From a virus, in the UHGV virus genome UHGV-0011358: a DNA stretch of 56,349 bases; one strand, given 5' to 3'. A program made the translations under genes and the position numbers. The notes beneath the pieces were generated by a model that had not been told where the DNA came from, made no database searches, and was given only the letters and a program-made list of their open reading frames with translations. Each line of letters opens with the position of its first letter. The stretch's first letter is position 1. This document shows positions 1 to 9,370 of this stretch, in pieces.

Positions 1-2
1 GT

Positions 3-626
3 CACCCTAATCAGTCATATATAACCAGTAAAGAGAACATTAAAGATATACCCCCTTGTATCCCCCCAGAAGAAAAACATGTCAATCAGGATGGTGCAAA
101 CGAAGCGGCATTGCGTTGCCTGGCCTTCTACAACGACAAGGCAGGATGCAAATGTCGTGATGCGAAGCCATTCATCGAACTACTGACAGAAACAAAAACA
201 CGTAAAGCGTATACGGAGGATGAGATCACATTAGTGATTGAGTGGGCTTTAACGCAATGGCGTAGCCGTGGCGGAACACCTAAACCTATCAACATTTGCC
301 GGGTAACTAAATTTGACGGGTATCTTGCTGATGCTGAACAATGGCGCAATCTGTCAGTTACTGTAAACGCTGCCGATGTGGTAAATGAGTTTAACATCAC
401 GTTTGATGGCCTGTTGCCACCTGCTGAACTGGATCGGGATCTTGAACGTAAAATATATGCGTTCACTGACTACCTGAAAAACAAAAGCATTAACGGATTT
501 ATCGCCTACTTTGAAGCATTCAAGAGCAAGGCTTCAGACTTTTACTTCGGCGATGGCTTCACGGCGACACTTGATTTCCTGCTTAAACCAAAAACGCTAC
601 GCGATACACGCGCAGGCGCTCTTTGA
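3..626 (+). CDS. 5'-truncated ORF with no in-frame ATG; probably the C-terminal part of a replication initiator
   Basis: Frame open from position 3; track ORF starts at TTG 111 and the 171 aa contain no Met. An AT-rich stretch at 10-60 precedes it. Confidence 0.45.
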   Translation, partial: HPNQSYITSKENIKDIPPCIPPEEKHVNQDGANEAALRCLAFYNDKAGCKCRDAKPFIELLTETKTRKAYTEDEITLVIEWALTQWRSRGGTPKPINICRVTKFDGYLADAEQWRNLSVTVNAADVVNEFNITFDGLLPPAELDRDLERKIYAFTDYLKNKSINGFIAYFEAFKSKASDFYFGDGFTATLDFLLKPKTLRDTRAGAL

Positions 627-994
627 CCAACCACGATCCACAAAAACCCAAAATAACCCGCAAAACAAGCTCGCCAGCGAGATAAATCGCATGTGGTGCT
701 ACACTTGCTTACCTTTTTGCGATTAGCTCGTTATAGAGCGTTACAGAGAGGATTTCAAAAAATGGACGGTAAACACGTTTTTGCCCTGGTCTTTGCCATC
801 GCTGCGGCAATCGCTGTTAACGTCGCTTTGTTCGGCGGTTTGTTCCTTCTAGTCAATCCATAACCTACCCACCATTCTGTAAATCAAAAATTAGCCACCT
901 GAGAGCGTCTATAACGCAATAAGACACTGCAACCTATGCAAACGGGTTACGCGGTGGAATTTTGCGTTGTAGAGCGTTTTACGGAGAAAATACA

Positions 995-1735
995 ATGTCT
1001 GATTTAATGGTTTTTGATGTCGATAGCGAAGTATTAATGATTTCATCGCGTGAAATAGCAGAAGCAACAGGCAAGGATCATTCTTCTGTGGTTGTGCGTG
1101 ATATTAAAAACATGCTGATCGATTTAGGGTTTACTGAGCATGATTTTTATCCTGCAAAAATGCAGGATTATGAATTTATAGGGTTTTTGTTTAAGTACAA
1201 GCACTACAACGGTCGCAACGTCATTGATGAGGTTTTGCTAAATAAAGAGCTAACAATGTGCTTGATCACTGGCTATGACGTTAAGCAACGCATGAAGGTA
1301 ATTAAACGCGTTAAAGAGTTGGAGGAGGCGCAACACAAACTAGCTTTGCCGGATTTCACTGATCCGGTTGCGGCAGCCCGCGCATGGGCGGATGAGGTAG
1401 AGCAAAAATTATTAGTTAAGCAAGAAAATGAACGGCTTACACTGGTTAACAAACAGCTTGCGCCAAAAGCTGCTGTATGTGACGCGATAGTCAAAAACGA
1501 TATGCACCGCACGGCTTCAGAGGTAGCTAAACCGCTGGGAATGTCAGCCGTAAAATTAAACAGAAAACTTTCGGCGGTTGGTGTTTACGATCTTCGCTGT
1601 CGCCGTCGTGTATTCAGTCAGTGGTTTATTGATGAGGGCTACGGTGAAATGAGGGTAACTTACGATGGATATGAGCAGGCTGTATTCACTGCTAAAGGAC
1701 AAGTATGGATCACTGAGCTTTTAACTTGTAACTAA
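995..1735 (+). CDS. antirepressor-like protein (Rha-like N-terminus, KilA-C-like C-terminus)
   Basis: N-terminal SSREIAEATGKDHSSVVRDI resembles phage Rha regulatory proteins; ATG 995 preceded by GGAG. Confidence 0.55.
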   Translation: MSDLMVFDVDSEVLMISSREIAEATGKDHSSVVVRDIKNMLIDLGFTEHDFYPAKMQDYEFIGFLFKYKHYNGRNVIDEVLLNKELTMCLITGYDVKQRMKVIKRVKELEEAQHKLALPDFTDPVAAARAWADEVEQKLLVKQENERLTLVNKQLAPKAAVCDAIVKNDMHRTASEVAKPLGMSAVKLNRKLSAVGVYDLRCRRRVFSQWFIDEGYGEMRVTYDGYEQAVFTAKGQVWITELLTCN

Positions 1736-1769
1736 GTATACAATTTGTTATTCGTGAGGAAATGACACT

Positions 1770-2900
1770 ATGTCACAAAGAAAGATAAGCGATGAGCAAT
1801 TGATCGCTGAATATAACAACGGTTTAACGTACAAGCAGATCGCTGAAAAATATGGTATGTCAAAACGCAACGTCGAGCGGCTGGGCGCAAAGCTGGCGAA
1901 ACGCGGTTTATTATCAACGCGCCGCGCCCCTGGTTTTGGCGTCAATGGCGAGTCGTTACTGGTCGATAAGAACGGCAATGTGATCATGCGCTGGATTAAA
2001 ACAGCCCGTGACCGCGACGAAATGGAACAGCTAATGGAAGCAGCCCGCGACGCTTTCACGGATGAAATACCACGCGCGGAGGCTGTGCCAGTGCCTGAAA
2101 TTGATTTTCAAAAAAGCCTAGCCCTTTATCCGGTGTTTGATCTGCATATCGGGGCGCTTGCTCATAAAGCTGAATGCGGCGAGAGCTACGACACTGGGAT
2201 CGCTGAGCGCGTGTTAAATGACTTCTTTGACTACGCCGTGGGCGCTGCGCCGATGTCTGAAAAAGCCGTCTTACTTCTCGGTGGCGACCTGATTCACACT
2301 GACGGATTGTTACCAGTGACGCCATCAAGCAATCACGTTCTTGATTGCGATTCGCGCTATGCAAAACTTGTTTATGTAGCGATCCGGGCAGTACGGCGGG
2401 CAGTCGGGAAGATGTTGCTAAATCATAAGGATATTGAAATCCAGGTGTTATCAGGCAATCACGATCAGTCTGGTATGATTTGGCTACGTGCGGCGCTGGC
2501 GGCTTTTTACGAAGATGAACCGCGCGTGACGGTTGATGTGTCACCTGCTATCGTCCACCACACGCAGTACGGTAAAACATTTCTTGCTTACCACCACGGG
2601 CACACTATCAAAAAACCGGAAAATTTATTGGCTGCTTGCGTATCTGACTGGCGCGATGATTTCGGGAAGTCGAAATATGTTTACGTCCATGTCGGACATT
2701 TGCACCATAAATCAGTAACAGAATCATCTATAGGCATAGTTGAACACCACGGCACGTTAGCGGGCAAAGACGCTTATTCAACTAATGGAGGATGGAGATC
2801 GCAACGTTGCGCTGCGGTTATCCTTTACAGTCCTGATTATGGCGAAATTGGTCGCTTTGTATATAGGCCTGAAATGGTGGGGTGTCATGATGTGGGATGA
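1770..2900 (+). CDS. HTH domain fused to calcineurin-like metallophosphoesterase
   Basis: N-terminal HTH (LTYKQIAEKYGMSKRNVERL); phosphoesterase motifs DLHIG, GGDLIHTDG, GNHD, HHGH, GHLHH in canonical order. Confidence 0.55.
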   Translation: MSQRKISDEQLIAEYNNGLTYKQIAEKYGMSKRNVERLGAKLAKRGLLSTRRAPGFGVNGESLLVDKNGNVIMRWIKTARDRDEMEQLMEAARDAFTDEIPRAEAVPVPEIDFQKSLALYPVFDLHIGALAHKAECGESYDTGIAERVLNDFFDYAVGAAPMSEKAVLLLGGDLIHTDGLLPVTPSSNHVLDCDSRYAKLVYVAIRAVRRAVGKMLLNHKDIEIQVLSGNHDQSGMIWLRAALAAFYEDEPRVTVDVSPAIVHHTQYGKTFLAYHHGHTIKKPENLLAACVSDWRDDFGKSKYVYVHVGHLHHKSVTESSIGIVEHHGTLAGKDAYSTNGGWRSQRCAAVILYSPDYGEIGRFVYRPEMVGCHDVG

Positions 2901-3393
2901 TTTGTTTACATATAGCGACGGCGTTCTATATTGGTCTTGTAACCGTGCAAATAACAAAATAAAAGCAGGTAGCGTGGCTGGATGTAAACATTATCGCGGA
3001 TATTGGACTGTACGCGTTAATGGTATTTGTTGCACATGGCGTCACCGCATTATCTGGGAAATGTTTAACGGCCCTATTCCTGATGGAATGGAAATAGATC
3101 ACATAAATCATGTACCTGGTGACGATAGAATCGAAAACTTAAGGATGGTGACAAGGAAGGAGAATAACAGAAACAAAACAATGCCATCAAGTAATACTAG
3201 CGGATGCGTTGGCGTTACGTGGAACAAGAAAACCAATAAATGGCGTGCGCAAATAGGTATAAGGGGGTCTGATGGGAAAAAGAAAACAATATACGTTTAT
3301 TACGGTGACTCATTTGATGATGCCGTAAAAGCAAGAAAAGAAGCTGAAAGAATGTATAACTTTCATAGCAATCACGGTATTTCTTTACCCTGA
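2887..3393 (+). CDS. HNH homing endonuclease (HNH plus AP2-like domain)
   Basis: IDHINHVPGDDRIENLRMVTRKEN HNH motif and C-terminal AP2-like segment; paralog of three other ORFs in the window. Confidence 0.75.
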   Translation: MMWDDLFTYSDGVLYWSCNRANNKIKAGSVAGCKHYRGYWTVRVNGICCTWRHRIIWEMFNGPIPDGMEIDHINHVPGDDRIENLRMVTRKENNRNKTMPSSNTSGCVGVTWNKKTNKWRAQIGIRGSDGKKKTIYVYYGDSFDDAVKARKEAERMYNFHSNHGISLP

Positions 3394-3427
3394 ATTTTCC
3401 ATTTTGTAAACCGGAGGTAATAACATA

Positions 3428-4843
3428 ATGGTAACTGAACAAATAAACTCACTACGGCAGGAACGTGAAGCGTCAGTTATCGGCGGGCTGCTGTTAGGCG
3501 GCCTAACTCCTAACGCGCAAGATGTTCTCGCCACACTTGATCCTGAAGTGTTCACGATCCCGCTTTATAAACGTGCGTTTGAAGTTATCCGGGCGCAAGC
3601 CAGAAACAGAAATCTTATCGACGCCTTGCTGGTTGGTGATGAGATTGGTAATGAAAATTTCGTACCGCTAATGCAAACGGCGCGATCGTGCCCGTCTGCC
3701 GCAAACCTGAAAGGATACGCACAGCTACTACGTGAAGAGCACCAGCGGCGGCAGATGTTGGAACTCATCGACGATATGCGCTACAAGCTGGAAACGGGGA
3801 CGCTTGAAGTCGTCAAAGAGACGATGAAAGATTTTGATTCCCGGTACTCAAAATTAAAGGTAACGAAAGATAAGATCATTCCGGTTCTGTTGCGCGATGC
3901 GGTACAGGAATATACGGATGTTTTAAGCAAGCGCATGGAATGCGGTGTCAATTCTGACAACATCAAAACAGGTATAGAACCACTCGACGAAATGTTGGGC
4001 GGCATTAACGCTACTGATTTGGTACTTCTCGCCGGACGCCCTGGGTCTGGTAAATCTGCGTTGGCGCTGACAATTGCCCGCGCAGCCGCTGAACGCCCTT
4101 ACCCTGGCAGTAAAGAACAGCGGGTTGGCGTTTTGCTCTTCACGCTTGAAATGTCACTCGATCAGATGACTGAGCGGGCCATTGCTGGCGCTGGTAATTT
4201 ATCAACTGACTGCCTGCGCAATCCGGTAAAACTTGATGATGAGGGTTGGGCGCATGTAGGCCAGGGGATGAGCGCACTTGCTAATCTTGAGGTGTGGATC
4301 GTTGACGCGTCGCAGTTGACGGTTGAGGAAATACGCGCAACAACGGAACGCATGAAGCAGGAACACCCGAACCTGGGTATGGTAATGATTGACTACATCG
4401 GTCTAATGAAGCTGGCGAAGGCCGAACGTCACGATCTCGCTGTAGGGCAATTGTCATGGTCGTTGAAGATGATGGCGAAAGAATTGCGCGTACCAGTGTT
4501 GGCGCTGGCGCAGTTGTCACGCCGCGTTGAGGAACGACCGAATAAGCGTCCTAACAATTCAGATCTTCGTGATTCCGGGAACCTTGAGCAAGATGCTGAC
4601 AGGATCATCATGGTGTACCGCGATGGTTACTACGATGAGCAGTCTGTTGCCCGCGAATATATGGAAATCATTGTATCGAAAAACCGTCACGGGAAAACGG
4701 GGACTGTCTACCAGCGGTTTGACGATAACGGCAACATCATACCATGCGACCAGGGCAGGGCCGCCGCCGCGTGCATTCAATCTATGAATCACCGCACAAG
4801 CCGATTTAACCAACGAAACAACCAGGATAACGCATCTTATTAA
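3428..4843 (+). CDS. DnaB-family replicative helicase
   Basis: 471 aa; Walker A GRPGSGKSALAL and DnaB-like C-terminal motifs (QLSRRVEER, DSGNLEQDAD). Confidence 0.85.
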   Translation: MVTEQINSLRQEREASVIGGLLLGGLTPNAQDVLATLDPEVFTIPLYKRAFEVIRAQARNRNLIDALLVGDEIGNENFVPLMQTARSCPSAANLKGYAQLLREEHQRRQMLELIDDMRYKLETGTLEVVKETMKDFDSRYSKLKVTKDKIIPVLLRDAVQEYTDVLSKRMECGVNSDNIKTGIEPLDEMLGGINATDLVLLAGRPGSGKSALALTIARAAAERPYPGSKEQRVGVLLFTLEMSLDQMTERAIAGAGNLSTDCLRNPVKLDDEGWAHVGQGMSALANLEVWIVDASQLTVEEIRATTERMKQEHPNLGMVMIDYIGLMKLAKAERHDLAVGQLSWSLKMMAKELRVPVLALAQLSRRVEERPNKRPNNSDLRDSGNLEQDADRIIMVYRDGYYDEQSVAREYMEIIVSKNRHGKTGTVYQRFDDNGNIIPCDQGRAAAACIQSMNHRTSRFNQRNNQDNASY

Positions 4844-4922
4844 TCAATATGAGCGAACTGCTTACCGGAAAGTTTAGCGCTTTCTGGTGGCTGTTATCGC
4901 GTTTAAAACGAGGCTAAAAACA

Positions 4923-5480
4923 ATGAGCGCTGAACTTGAAACAAAAGTTATCAATGTCCTTGAACTTGATGGCATCGCAACAATGCACCAGTTACGCAAT
5001 AAAACGGGATTATTGGCTGGATATGACAAAGACGGATTGCTGCCTGAGACAATTAAACATTTAATAAAAAACGGTATCGTCGAGCGCGTATATACATGTT
5101 TTGGACGCCGCCGCCGTCTGCTGGGTTATCGTATTAAACAGTTATATGCTGAACGTCGTGGGCGTGTTGCGTCGTTATTTAGTGACTACAGCGTTAAAAA
5201 GCGTATGCGCGACATTAGCGCTGAAACGGGAATACCGTGGAATTATCTTTCTCGTACTATGCGTTTAATGGTGATTGATGAAACGCTTTGCGTTGATCCA
5301 AATAGACACGGCGTTAACTTTTACTCACTGTTTAAACCTGGGCGATTCGGTCACGCTAATGATTTGGCGTTTGACTTTGACAGCCGCCTGAACGAATACC
5401 GGAAAAATAACGGCCTGCTACCTGATAAACCAGTGTTTGAGATTGAAAAACTTAACGGTGAAACGGGGTTGGAATTATGA
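4923..5480 (+). CDS. hypothetical protein
   Basis: ORF in early-right operon; ATG 4923 chosen over the upstream GTG. Confidence 0.4.
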   Translation: MSAELETKVINVLELDGIATMHQLRNKTGLLAGYDKDGLLPETIKHLIKNGIVERVYTCFGRRRRLLGYRIKQLYAERRGRVASLFSDYSVKKRMRDISAETGIPWNYLSRTMRLMVIDETLCVDPNRHGVNFYSLFKPGRFGHANDLAFDFDSRLNEYRKNNGLLPDKPVFEIEKLNGETGLEL

Positions 5481-5683
5481 GACGGGTAATTTTTTATTCA
5501 GTTGAAACGTTTGTTGACGAATCTCACTTTAAATTCGCATGCGATCCTTGCGGCACAATGGTTTATACGCCGCCACTAATGCGCAAGTATAAGCACGTAA
5601 AATTTAACCGGGCTTTTGTGCCGATTCGTTACGCTTTGCAGGCGTTGCGCGGTGAATTACGAAACACAATGCGGATTGTGTAA
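5477..5683 (+). CDS. hypothetical protein
   Basis: 68 aa ORF; start overlaps the previous stop. Confidence 0.35.
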   Translation: MRRVIFYSVETFVDESHFKFACDPCGTMVYTPPLMRKYKHVKFNRAFVPIRYALQALRGELRNTMRIV

Positions 5684-5694
5684 GGGGGGGGGCT

Positions 5695-5892
5695 ATGGGC
5701 AAGGAATTGGATTTAACAGTGGAAGACTTAAGCACTATCGCGGAATACATGCGAGGCGATAATCCTGATAAGCCTGTCACGGTTGACATGAAATATTTAA
5801 AAGGCACTTTTATGACTTCTTCAAGATTGATAAGTCTTCAAATAATCATGAAAGCACGCAGCGAAAGCTATAAAGGGGTGAAGCATGAATAA
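5695..5892 (+). CDS. hypothetical protein
   Basis: 65 aa ORF with strong G-rich RBS upstream. Confidence 0.4.
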   Translation: MGKELDLTVEDLSTIAEYMRGDNPDKPVTVDMKYLKGTFMTSSRLISLQIIMKARSESYKGVKHE

Positions 5893-6445
5893 AGTGGTTA
5901 AATTCTCGTTTGATGATAAACAAGTGCAAACGGTTGTTTATGCAGATAAGCCCGCTTTTGTTGCAATGGATGTGGCGCGGGCGCTGGGGTACGCTACACC
6001 ACAAAAAGCCATCAAAGATCACTGTAAGTCATTGAAAAAAATAAAATGTTCTGAAATGGAACATTTGGGTTTTGCTCCAATCCCGCAAGGAATTACGCTA
6101 ATTCATGAACCGGATGTTTTTCGCTTAATTATGCATTCAAAACTTGAATCCGCCGAACGTTTCCAAGATTGGGTATTTGAGGAAGTGTTACCATCTATTC
6201 GTCAGAATGGCTATTACGGCGAAAAACCGAAAACACCGAATGACATGGCGGCGCACGTTAAAGGACTTATTTGTGACGGCGCAAGCGGTGAGCAAGTAAT
6301 GAATGCAGTAAGCAGTTTTGCCGCTGATAGCGAAACGGTCGGCAAGGTTGGTAGTCGCCTGTTAACGCAACGCAAGCGAGATAAAAAGCAGGTTAAGCAG
6401 TTAATAAAAGAAGTTAACGAGCGTTTTCAGTTGCAATTGTTTTGA
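5885..6445 (+). CDS. Bro-N domain protein (antirepressor-like)
   Basis: N-terminal FDDKQVQTVVYADKPAFVAMDVARALGY and later VFRLIMHSKLESAERFQDWVFEEVLPSIR fit the Bro-N pattern. Confidence 0.65.
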   Translation: MNKVVKFSFDDKQVQTVVYADKPAFVAMDVARALGYATPQKAIKDHCKSLKKIKCSEMEHLGFAPIPQGITLIHEPDVFRLIMHSKLESAERFQDWVFEEVLPSIRQNGYYGEKPKTPNDMAAHVKGLICDGASGEQVMNAVSSFAADSETVGKVGSRLLTQRKRDKKQVKQLIKEVNERFQLQLF

Positions 6446-7062: not shown

Positions 7063-7077
7063 TTGAGGATAAGCAAA

Positions 7078-7737
7078 ATGAGTGAATCAAGAGTAATTGG
7101 CATAATTCGTCATCGCACTAACCCTGATGTTTACCCATCGTTTGAGGTAACAACATGCCGCACGGAATACAATTTTGGATCATGCTATTTAGTTGGTGTC
7201 CGCGCTGATACTCGCGGCACTTATTCAGTTATGGCGTCAAGCTGGAAATTTGATAAATACGCTAATTTATCGAATAAGGATGATGACGGCATGAATAAAG
7301 AAAGTGAAATCATTGATGAATTAATCGAAGATGAACGCCATGATTGCGATAAACCGGAAGTTACAGAATGGAAGGCAGGAGAAAAGCCGCCGTGCGGAGT
7401 GTGGCTTGATTGCATTGGATCAAGAAGCGATATAGTGATTGATGTCGTTAAGTTTTTCTACCTGGGCGATAAGTGGTCTATTGCTCACAGTAAATTAGAA
7501 ACAGGTATTGAAACACCAATTGCATGGAAACAATACTCGTACCGCATTCACATTGACCCGAAAGAAAAAGCACTGGCGGAAATTGCGTTTGCGCTGGCTA
7601 CTAAGGTGATTGGTGAAGATGCGGCAAAAGAGATTGACTTTAACCATGACAATGATTTTTCGTGCGATTATCGCAATATGGCGCAAGCAATTATTGATGG
7701 ATGTATCGGGCACGTTGAATACACCGGGGGCAAATAA
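7078..7737 (+). CDS. hypothetical protein
   Basis: 219 aa ORF with GAGGA RBS; no recognised domain. Confidence 0.5.
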   Translation: MSESRVIGIIRHRTNPDVYPSFEVTTCRTEYNFGSCYLVGVRADTRGTYSVMASSWKFDKYANLSNKDDDGMNKESEIIDELIEDERHDCDKPEVTEWKAGEKPPCGVWLDCIGSRSDIVIDVVKFFYLGDKWSIAHSKLETGIETPIAWKQYSYRIHIDPKEKALAEIAFALATKVIGEDAAKEIDFNHDNDFSCDYRNMAQAIIDGCIGHVEYTGGK

Positions 7738-7955
7738 TGGATAAGATCGGGGCAATACTTATTAATCGTGAGCAAGTGCAAAAAATGTTAGGCGGGCTTA
7801 GCAAGTCCGCCTTTTTTAAACTGGTTAAAAAATGGAAGGATTCAGGTACTCCATTCCCTGAACCCGTTAAGGGAATGCCAGCATTAAAGCGCGGCGGTTC
7901 TCTTTACCGTTATCAGGATGTTATTTCATTTTGTAGGTCAATGGGCTTCATGTAA
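7737..7955 (+). CDS. AlpA/excisionase-like small DNA-binding protein
   Basis: 72 aa, basic, HTH-like; convergent with and overlapping the integrase 3' end. Confidence 0.4.
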   Translation: MDKIGAILINREQVQKMLGGLSKSAFFKLVKKWKDSGTPFPEPVKGMPALKRGGSLYRYQDVISFCRSMGFM

Positions 7956-9112
7956 TAATCAGCAAGCATGTTCATCGCCTCTGTCTGTTCCCTCACGTAG
8001 TCATACTGATCATATATAGCCAACATCCCCGCCAGCTTATGACCTAAAACCTTTTCTGCAACGTGAGGCGCAATGCCAATGGCAGAGAGGTTCGTTCTCA
8101 CAGTGCGGCGTAGATCGTGACACGACCACGGCTCGCCGCCCATCCTTAACATCAAATCCCTTGCCGCTGTTTTCGGTACACTTCTGTCCACCGCCTCATC
8201 CCTTCCAGAAAGCACAGGAACGAAGACAAAATTAAAGCTATGCAGATCCATAGCCTCACGCAATAAATCGACGCTAACGTCGGATAAACCGCGTTTAAAC
8301 TCGTTTCTGTTCTTACTCAATGCACCCGGCACAGTCCACACGCAGTTATCAAGATCGAAATGTTCTCGCCTTGCGTTTGTTAGCTCGCTTGTCCTGCATC
8401 CGGTGAATATAATCAGTTTCATCAATATCTGATTTAGACGCGCCATTTTTGAACTGTCTATAAGGCTGATTAGATGGCGAATCTCCTGTATTGACAAAAC
8501 CCGCTTCCCTTGCGCCGGGTTTTTACCAACGTCTTTCACGCGTAGTAAAGATATGTCGTCACGATCCACGCGGCGGCGACGCATGGCGTATTTTATTACC
8601 GCTTTCATTCTATTGAGAACTATGCCCGCCTGAACTGGTGCACCACCATTAGCCACCTTTCTAAAAACACCCTCCCACATCATAGCGTCCATATCATCGA
8701 CTATATAGCTACCGTATGACCTGATGACGTGCTTATTCAACATCGCTTCAACCTGCTTATAGTTAACCATGTTTCTTGCCTGTGGTGATTCCATGTACTC
8801 CCTGACAATATCCTCAACCGTTGCCCGTGTCGTAACGCGGGAAAAGTGCATTCTTTTTACGATTGATGGATCTCGTCCTGAGTTTAACACTTCCTTATGT
8901 TCAGCCACCGCCGCGCGGGCTTCTTTAAGTGTTATTTCTCCGTATGTGCCGATCTTCATCCGTCGAGGCTTGCCGTTGAATCGGTAGCGATACTGGAAAG
9001 ATATAACTCCGCGCGGGCTTATCCTGGCAGACAATCCGCCCGCATCCGGTACTTCTTCCGGGCCGTCGTATGGCTTGCCGTGGATGTTTCTTAGTTTGGT
9101 ATCTGTAAGCAT
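7913..9112 (-). CDS. int: tyrosine integrase (P4-like)
   Basis: MLTDTKLRNI N-terminus and C-terminal catalytic region (HDLRRT, HVAEKVLGH); ATG at 9112. Confidence 0.9.
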   Translation of the reverse strand: MLTDTKLRNIHGKPYDGPEEVPDAGGLSARISPRGVISFQYRYRFNGKPRRMKIGTYGEITLKEARAAVAEHKEVLNSGRDPSIVKRMHFSRVTTRATVEDIVREYMESPQARNMVNYKQVEAMLNKHVIRSYGSYIVDDMDAMMWEGVFRKVANGGAPVQAGIVLNRMKAVIKYAMRRRRVDRDDISLLRVKDVGKNPAQGKRVLSIQEIRHLISLIDSSKMARLNQILMKLIIFTGCRTSELTNARREHFDLDNCVWTVPGALSKNRNEFKRGLSDVSVDLLREAMDLHSFNFVFVPVLSGRDEAVDRSVPKTAARDLMLRMGGEPWSCHDLRRTVRTNLSAIGIAPHVAEKVLGHKLAGMLAIYDQYDYVREQTEAMNMLADYYMKPIDLQNEITS

Positions 9113-9370
9113 AATTTGGTCACTATTTGGTACACACATTTTACGCATGGATAGTACCACGATAGGGAACGATATGACACGATAGAATAAATATTTCTTT
9201 TTAAATCAACGCGAAACGGTGACGATGCGACACGATATGAAATTATAGAAATGGCACTATCCGTTTATCTTTTGAATGGGTAGCTTAACGAAAAATCTAT
9301 TGGTATTCAATATCTTATGATTTGTTTTTGTTTTTGATTTATCAATTTGGTCACAATTTGGTACACAAAA
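9113..9370. repeat. candidate attP region with arm-type direct repeats
   Basis: AATTTGGTCACNATTTGGTACACA at 9113-9138 and 9344-9368; three to four ACACGATA copies at 9158-9243. Confidence 0.4.

Follow-up and report, generated by a model that had tools for sequence, protein, structure and literature searches.

A helix-turn-helix metallophosphoesterase encoded between the initiator and helicase genes of an mEpimmI-type coliphage: a candidate partner-independent DNA nuclease

Here we analyze a gene at positions 1770-2900 of UHGV virus genome UHGV-0011358, a stretch of viral DNA of 56,349 nucleotides that we call the window. The window belongs to a temperate coliphage of the mEpimmI group; this group is described in PMC11893012, a paper in which the gene is not discussed. 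The gene product carries an N-terminal helix-turn-helix (HTH, residues 8-44) fused to a calcineurin-like metallophosphoesterase (MPE) domain (residues 114-370), in agreement with the first-pass annotation of this DNA, and we refer to it as HTH-MPE. Its domain layout and intact active site place it with the nuclease-type MPEs, and we suggest below that it may act on DNA during phage replication.

Domain architecture and catalytic site

The features of the gene, all on the + strand, are as follows.

1756-1759, +: Shine-Dalgarno-like GAGG, 10 nt 5' of the ATG of the HTH-MPE gene, as read in the sequence
1770-2900, +: HTH-MPE gene, ATG start, 376 amino acids plus stop; member of PHROG 704 and orthologue of phage T1 CPTT1_064
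1791-1901, +: three-helix HTH, residues 8-44, of the LuxR/NarL or sigma-70 region 4 type
1935-2063, +: family-specific β-hairpin (residues 56-80, "WxKT") and linker helix (residues 82-98)
2109-2879, +: MPE catalytic domain, residues 114-370, nuclease-type (DP1/SbcD/Mre11-like), without a capping domain
2139-2147, +: MPE motif I, D124-L-H126, invariant or nearly so
2283-2297, +: MPE motif II, G172-D173-L-I-H176 (GDxxH), from conservation and alignment to Mre11
2454-2465, +: MPE motif III, G229-N230-H231-D232, invariant, aligning with GNHD of SbcD
2592-2597, +: MPE motif IV, H275-H276, with H276 invariant
2694-2705, +: MPE motif V, G309-H310-L-H312, invariant or nearly so, aligning with GHiH of Mre11 and GHtH of Bxb1 gp47

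The conservation of the motifs was judged in two alignments, of 105 and 118 homologues. In both, no columns of the family are better conserved than those of the five MPE motifs: the seven metal ligands, together with H176 and H231, are invariant or nearly so among homologues with a mean column identity of 21-40%. Conservation of the metal ligands and of these histidines therefore indicates that the enzyme activity is under selection. The five-motif pattern of the superfamily (DxH, GDxx[DH], GNH[DE], H and GHxH) is found complete in HTH-MPE, and the four-layer α/β-sandwich of the MPE fold is also present. The earlier statement that all phosphoesterase motifs are present is thus borne out, and the motifs are in register with the catalytic positions of known MPEs: with Mre11 at motifs II and V, with SbcD at motifs II and III, and with gp47 at motifs IV and V. 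After motif II there is a family-specific insert of about 21 residues, in which T184, H189, D192, D194 and R196 are conserved.

The AlphaFold2 model, built on the 105-sequence alignment, has a predicted local distance difference test score of 88.6 and a predicted template modeling score of 0.75. Its N-terminal helices span residues 8-16, 21-28 and 32-44, and neither a capping domain nor a C-terminal extension is seen in it, the protein ending at residue 376. An N-terminal HTH of the DNA-binding type is confirmed. Within the protein, it is the HTH that is conserved least; among the 150 best family representatives, about 9 have other N-termini and keep the hairpin and the MPE domain. The hairpin follows the pattern PxG[FY]xxKGxST...W[VI]KT, with G69 and W75 found in at least 90% of sequences.

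Since the Pfam and NCBIfam results for HTH-MPE itself stay below threshold, the domain assignment rests on structure prediction, alignments and family-wide scans. Twelve Pfam HTH models fall on residues 10-60, all of them sub-threshold (E 0.002-0.25), while Metallophos (PF00149) and Metallophos_2 give no match to the protein even at E ≤ 1, nor does an NCBIfam scan give any. Among 118 diverse family representatives, PF00149 matches 14 and PF12850 matches 3 at E ≤ 1e-3. The failure of Pfam Metallophos on HTH-MPE thus reflects divergence and not the absence of the domain. Significant HTH matches in the same set are to HTH_1 (17 members), HTH_50 (11) and Sigma70_r4_2, GerE and HTH_8 (5 each), and beyond HTH and Metallophos the Pfam scan returned two single-member matches near the cut-off.

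Family, spread and gene neighborhoods

HTH-MPE matches PHROG 704 ("DNA repair exonuclease") over its full length, residues 4-370 aligning with profile positions 2-389 of 390 (E 2.5e-140), a match that chance could not produce; it also matches PHROG 284, and it does not match PHROG 221. It shares 96% identity with the mEp515 and mEp010 genes and 58% identity, end to end, with phage T1 CPTT1_064 (AAP49983.1, ORF 16; 376 versus 377 amino acids). The T1 protein agrees with it in the arrangement of HTH, hairpin and MPE domain and in its motifs. Its GenBank note calls it an exonuclease on the ground of HHPred similarity to E. coli SbcD (4LTY, 99% probability). By itself, then, the window gene adds nothing new, being a near-identical copy of published mEpimmI genes with a T1 orthologue already labeled SbcD-like, and the novelty implied in the first-pass annotation is not supported.

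The family, in contrast to the single gene, is large. In a tblastn search, 2041 of 50,697 phage records were positive, and 1955 of the 2041 cover at least 80% of the query. Carriers include phages of Escherichia, Klebsiella, Salmonella, Vibrio, Campylobacter, Flavobacterium, Rhodobacter and Thermus as well as rhizobial phages, and the gene is also found in Dhillonvirus, in Jersey-like phages and in many prophages, among them chromosomal copies in E. coli and Agrobacterium. When 1.84 billion representatives of 50%-identity clusters were searched with a profile, 6385 matched at E ≤ 1e-3, 2305 of them at E ≤ 1e-30. Family members as a rule have the HTH-plus-MPE layout: of the best 150 representatives, most are 375-420 amino acids long and match the whole profile. 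The gene is a core gene of Drexlerviridae. An exonuclease-holin-endolysin-spanin module was reported in 508 of 522 Drexlerviridae in a 2026 pangenome (PMC13164509), and the exonuclease of that module is the HTH-MPE family gene.

The names given to homologues are inconsistent and partly wrong. They include "oxidoreductase" (many in Agrobacterium and Sinorhizobium), "Rrf2 family transcriptional regulator" and "DNA polymerase II small subunit," besides "DNA repair exonuclease," "metallophosphoesterase," "hypothetical protein" and "helix-turn-helix domain-containing protein." In the re-annotation of phage TLS, its own copy is labeled "proof-reading exonuclease" (PMC11447400).

In the window, the gene lies between genes for an O-like initiator and a DnaB helicase, that is, in the replication module to which it had first been assigned. 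Its neighbors are the following.

60/111-626, +: O-like replication initiator, C-terminal half (PHROG 428/345), located by tblastn with residues 163-350 of the relatives' O-like protein
962-1735, +: Rha/KilAC anti-repressor-like gene (Pfam ANT and Phage_pRha; PHROG 63), in the variable slot upstream of the MPE gene
2890-3393, +: optional HNH homing endonuclease (Pfam HNH_3, 1.9e-21; PHROG 99), between the MPE gene and dnaB
3428-4843, +: DnaB-type replicative helicase (Pfam DnaB_C, 2.5e-76, and DnaB N-terminal domain)
4887-5480, +: MarR/Ren-like gene

Every gene between about 60 and 5480 is encoded on the + strand, with little space in between, and a promoter and terminator scan of positions 1-5600 gave no signal exceeding the shuffled background; for these reasons we read this block as a single early operon. 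The early region shares about 90% DNA identity with mEp010, mEp044, mEp515, mEp013, mEp554, mEp021 and MagusPhagus.

Gene order was compared by calling open reading frames (ORFs) in 88 related loci and clustering them with blastp. The mEpimmI-type loci, about 27 in number, share one order: MarR-like gene, O-like initiator, variable slot, HTH-MPE, (HNH), DnaB and MarR/Ren-like gene, with HTH-MPE downstream of the O-like gene and just upstream of dnaB in ~27/27 of them. What fills the variable slot differs between loci; it may be the Ant-like gene, as it is in the window, or a Zn-ribbon endonuclease (PHROG 681), a 372-aa ORF or small ORFs, and some loci have no gene there at all.

The adjacency of an HNH gene, from which a shared role with the MPE had been suggested, is literally true: the HNH start, as set by the mEp021 annotation and the sequence, overlaps the MPE stop by 11 nt. 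The functional link is rejected. Only 5 of the ~27 mEpimmI-type loci have the HNH gene (the window, mEp515, mEp021, and loci L009 and L022), and in MagusPhagus the MPE stop is followed by 18 nt and then dnaB, the alignment showing that the window has about 0.5 kb cleanly inserted here. Since it is optional and so precisely absent in MagusPhagus, the HNH protein is a homing endonuclease and not a functional partner of the MPE. An HNH gene also lies directly downstream of HTH-MPE in T1 (L091:6029-6511) and in a Vibrio phage (L004:7208-7717). Among relatives in the mEpimmI group, homing-type endonucleases (clusters c43 and c85) are found in the variable slot on the upstream side of the MPE gene; the endonuclease-like ORFs of this slot include the Zn-ribbon PHROG 681 protein and the 372-aa ORF, which has a C-terminal ...EIDESHH... 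motif. The recurrence of HNH genes downstream in phages as unrelated as mEpimmI, T1 and Vibrio phages, together with the endonuclease-like ORFs upstream, suggests that the flanks of HTH-MPE are an insertion hotspot for mobile endonucleases.

Outside the mEpimmI group the neighborhoods differ. T1-like phages have the order helicase, resolvase, Dam, small ORFs, MPE, (SH3), holin, endolysin and spanin, so that the MPE gene is the last of the helicase/resolvase/Dam operon, just before the lysis genes; this position distinguishes T1 CPTT1_064 from the window gene, which lies between the O-like initiator and DnaB in a temperate phage. In Webervirus the order is MPE, polynucleotide kinase, deoxynucleoside monophosphate (dNMP) kinase and lysis genes; in Dhillonvirus, lysis genes, MPE and terS; and in Thermus phage Lalka27a, MPE, nucleotidase and dNMP kinase. 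The alphaproteobacterial 16-3-like phages have the MPE gene with a MazG pyrophosphatase, a NinI-like phosphatase (PHROG 246) and an HD dNMP phosphatase nearby. In contigs of this type (L083:7914-8624, L084, and L006, which is phage 16-3 p047/p048), these phosphohydrolase genes form a compact cluster within a few kb of HTH-MPE. The HTH-MPE gene travels with genes of DNA and nucleotide metabolism.

Some further observations concern the rest of the window. The phage ori iteron has the sequence GGTAGTGTCACAGAGTCACTGGG. Iteron-like repeats, GGTAGTGTCAC(T/A)G(T/A)G(A/T)CAC(C/T)GGG, occur in about 3 copies at 56,240-56,349 and 1-10, the last being split by the window boundary. These iterons lie inside the O-like initiator gene, which the boundary divides: the N-terminal half extends past the window end, and the C-terminal half begins near position 60. 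Joining the window ends does not restore the O-like reading frame. From the gene split at the iterons and the ends that join out of frame, the contig is probably that of a circularly permuted phage genome, opened within the origin repeats and missing part of them. The early right operon has a second anti-repressor-like gene besides that at 962-1735, at 5885-6445 (+, BRO-N/Ant type, PHROG 130). A recombination module at 52,485-54,056 (-) comprises an Erf-like annealing protein (53,415-54,056), SSB (52,966-53,415) and an endonuclease VII/HNH-like Zn-finger protein (52,485-53,129), and no dedicated 5'-3' exonuclease partner of Erf was seen among those window ORFs that were annotated. A 224-aa ORF at 7063-7737 (+), which has no PHROG match at E ≤ 1e-5 and lies just upstream of the integrase gene (7913-9160, -), may be a moron or cargo gene beside the attachment site.

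Candidate functions of HTH-MPE

We propose, at a probability of about one half, that HTH-MPE would be a DNA nuclease with a supporting role in replication of the phage DNA, Mn-dependent, tethered by its HTH and independent of a partner. Backing for this comes from the conserved catalytic site, the SbcD-like profile match, the HTH, the operon position and the lack of a partner ATPase. What is established is how the domains are arranged, that the catalytic site is intact and conserved, to which fold class the protein belongs, that the gene keeps its position in the mEpimmI group and that a partner ATPase is absent. In the proposed scheme, the gene would be co-transcribed with those of the O-like initiator and the DnaB helicase in the temperate mEpimmI-type coliphage, and its product would belong to the Mre11/SbcD/PolD-DP1 class of nucleases, as a phosphodiesterase with two metals (Mn2+-type). 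The HTH and the hairpin may hold the enzyme on duplex DNA, replacing a Rad50/SbcC or DP2 partner, and the MPE site could then cut the phosphodiester bonds of DNA, with 3'→5' exonuclease activity or with endonuclease activity specific for single strands or for particular structures. Through this activity the protein may process DNA ends or intermediates of replication or recombination, as needed for productive phage replication. Its functional parallel would be the mycobacteriophage MPE Bxb1 gp47. A DNA-directed role in replication or repair, one of those listed in the first-pass annotation, is thus the best reading; the anti-defense role listed beside it is possible and has no specific support, PADLOC giving no match on HTH-MPE (the sole hit, RmrT, has an E of 0.039, which is at chance level).

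The comparison with known MPE nucleases shows both what HTH-MPE shares with them and what sets it apart. Like Mre11/SbcD, it has an MPE nuclease domain with histidines in motifs II and III. Motifs II and V align with T. maritima Mre11, in which motif II is GDLLH where the window protein has GDLIH, and hhalign of the family to E. coli SbcD gives an E of 5e-4 over motifs II-III. The overall similarity is low: identity to Mre11/SbcD is 15-19%, and phmmer and profile searches of Protein Data Bank sequences found nothing significant, the best match being Mre11/SbcD at E 0.14. Mre11/SbcD (3qg5, 7dog, 6s6v) possess a capping domain and a C-terminal region that binds Rad50/SbcC, both absent from the window protein, while they lack its N-terminal HTH and hairpin; the insert after motif II is likewise missing in SbcD. 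No SbcC/Rad50-like protein was seen either, the three window ORFs longer than 1000 amino acids being tail fiber, J and tape measure proteins and none occurring among the neighbors in the 88 loci. The archaeal PolD small subunit DP1 (5ihe), with 13% identity, is a 3'-5' proofreading exonuclease that has an OB-fold domain and is bound to DP2. HTH-MPE has the HTH and hairpin where DP1 has the OB-fold and so does not conform to the DP1 type, and the replication module showed no gene for a DNA polymerase. Phages TLS and T1 likewise encode no recognizable DNA polymerase (PMC11447400).

The MPEs of cluster A mycobacteriophages (Bxb1 gp47, L5 gp54 and A10ZJ24 Gp48) resemble HTH-MPE in being phage-encoded, without a partner and placed among replication genes. 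They differ from it in their length of about 255 amino acids, in having neither HTH nor hairpin, and in belonging to PHROG 221. A10ZJ24 Gp48 is an Mn-dependent DNase: in vitro it degrades genomic DNA as well as linear and circular molecules, and in vivo it degrades the genome of the host (PMC12287305). Bxb1 gp47 has a second role as a recombination directionality factor, a precedent for moonlighting in MPEs (PMC11795197); for the window protein there is no indication of such a serine-integrase directionality role.

Several points weigh against a nuclease acting in replication. E. coli SbcD has GDVFD at motif II and not GDxxH, so the motif II histidine is suggestive and not diagnostic of nucleases. 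The alignment with Bxb1 gp47 is poor, hhalign pairing only motifs IV-V at a probability of 1.5%, and gp47 matches PHROG 221 and 20266, not 704. Membership of gp47 in the family is therefore rejected, and the cluster A MPEs are analogues. The position of the gene is not conserved outside the mEpimmI group, as the T1-like and Dhillonvirus orders and the nucleotide-metabolism neighbors elsewhere show, so that the replication-module context is lineage-specific. In addition, our literature search on the family found genome descriptions and annotations, and no biochemical or genetic study; the "exonuclease" label of T1 CPTT1_064 itself rests on the HHpred similarity to SbcD.

A second explanation is that HTH-MPE serves host-DNA degradation and nucleotide salvage, acting as an early DNase that feeds dNMPs into phage DNA synthesis and silences host defense genes as a by-product. 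Parallels for such a role are A10ZJ24 Gp48 and the T4 gp46/47 exonuclease. Phages T1 and TLS degrade the host genome and reuse its nucleotides by an enzyme that has not been identified (PMC11447400), and the near-universal exonuclease-lysis module of Drexlerviridae (PMC13164509) fits with this idea. So do the salvage-gene neighbors in several unrelated lineages (Webervirus, Lalka27a and 16-3-like phages, others having a deoxyribosyltransferase-like gene) and the in vivo activity of Gp48, a stand-alone phage MPE (PMC12287305), although Gp48 belongs to the other MPE family, PHROG 221. On the other hand, many carriers are temperate phages or prophages (the window, mEpimmI, 16-3 and the chromosomal copies), in which wholesale destruction of host DNA would be unexpected. 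The window neighbors of the MPE gene are replication genes and not salvage genes, and bulk DNA degradation does not obviously require an HTH that reads sequence. We regard this explanation as possible but rather unlikely.

It is also conceivable that HTH-MPE is a DNA-binding regulator, either a middle/late activator or an origin- or pac-associated factor, whose MPE domain is accessory or moonlighting. The HTH is of the promoter-reading sigma-70 region 4/LuxR type, and the gene stands directly upstream of lysis, terminase or head genes in T1-like, Dhillonvirus and Vibrio phages. The NCBI pipeline names some homologues as an Rrf2 family regulator or an HTH-containing protein, and Bxb1 gp47 provides the precedent for moonlighting (PMC11795197). 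Against this, it is the HTH that varies most and is sometimes exchanged, while the hairpin and the catalytic residues show little or no variation, which places the center of selection on the enzyme. Operator- or iteron-like repeats that could serve the HTH were sought in positions 1-5600; only short two-copy matches of chance quality were found, and no repeated operator-like motif. A primarily regulatory role therefore seems to us quite improbable.

The first-pass annotation had set HTH-MPE apart from the stand-alone phosphatase of phage lambda. This contrast is valid, but it reflects a different MPE clade and not an unusual fusion. Lambda NinI, a PPP-family Ser/Thr phosphatase, is also phage-encoded and belongs to the same calcineurin-like/MPE superfamily. 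The PPP features (GDxVDRG, GNHE and PPP-specific fold elaborations) are not found in the window protein, nor does it match the NinI PHROGs. Its scores are 14.0 with MJ0936, 13.4 with LpxH and 12.6 with YfcE, which are small phosphodiesterases, versus 8.4-9.3 with PPP Ser/Thr phosphatases (PP5, PP1 and a calcineurin fusion). Given these low PPP scores and the NinI-like gene that coexists with HTH-MPE in 16-3-like phages, the NinI-like reading was rejected, and the coexistence indicates that the two proteins are functionally distinct. More generally, a phosphoesterase that does not act on nucleic acid, be it a NinI-like protein Ser/Thr phosphatase or an Acb1/Apyc1-like anti-defense phosphodiesterase of second messengers, is very unlikely, for although the superfamily contains protein phosphatases and nucleotide phosphodiesterases, motif II lacks the PPP signature, neither PADLOC nor the NinI PHROGs give a match, and a fused DNA-binding HTH has no rationale in a hydrolase of soluble signals.

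Meaning for the family

The family deserves attention as a core gene of Drexlerviridae with 6385 cluster representatives, for which we found no experimental study. Its combination of a sigma-r4/LuxR-type HTH, a hairpin and an Mre11/DP1-class site, without a partner ATPase, is an architecture that matches no characterized MPE nuclease. A bolder and tentative idea, to which we give a small chance, is that PHROG 704 HTH-MPE proteins are a self-sufficient "Mre11 without Rad50," aimed at particular DNA by their own HTH and hairpin. In virulent T1-like phages such an enzyme might carry out host-chromosome degradation and nucleotide reuse (a T1 gene 2.5-type function), and in temperate mEpimmI phages it might be used at the replication fork or origin. 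If this were true, it would assign a function to a gene that belongs to the core of more than 2000 sequenced phages, and it would reveal a new targeting mode for an Mre11-class nuclease. The activity of the protein could reveal the enzyme by which T1-like phages degrade host DNA. Alternatively, it could show a general replication requirement for an MPE nuclease in siphophages that lack a polymerase, as Bxb1 gp47 suggests for mycobacteriophages.

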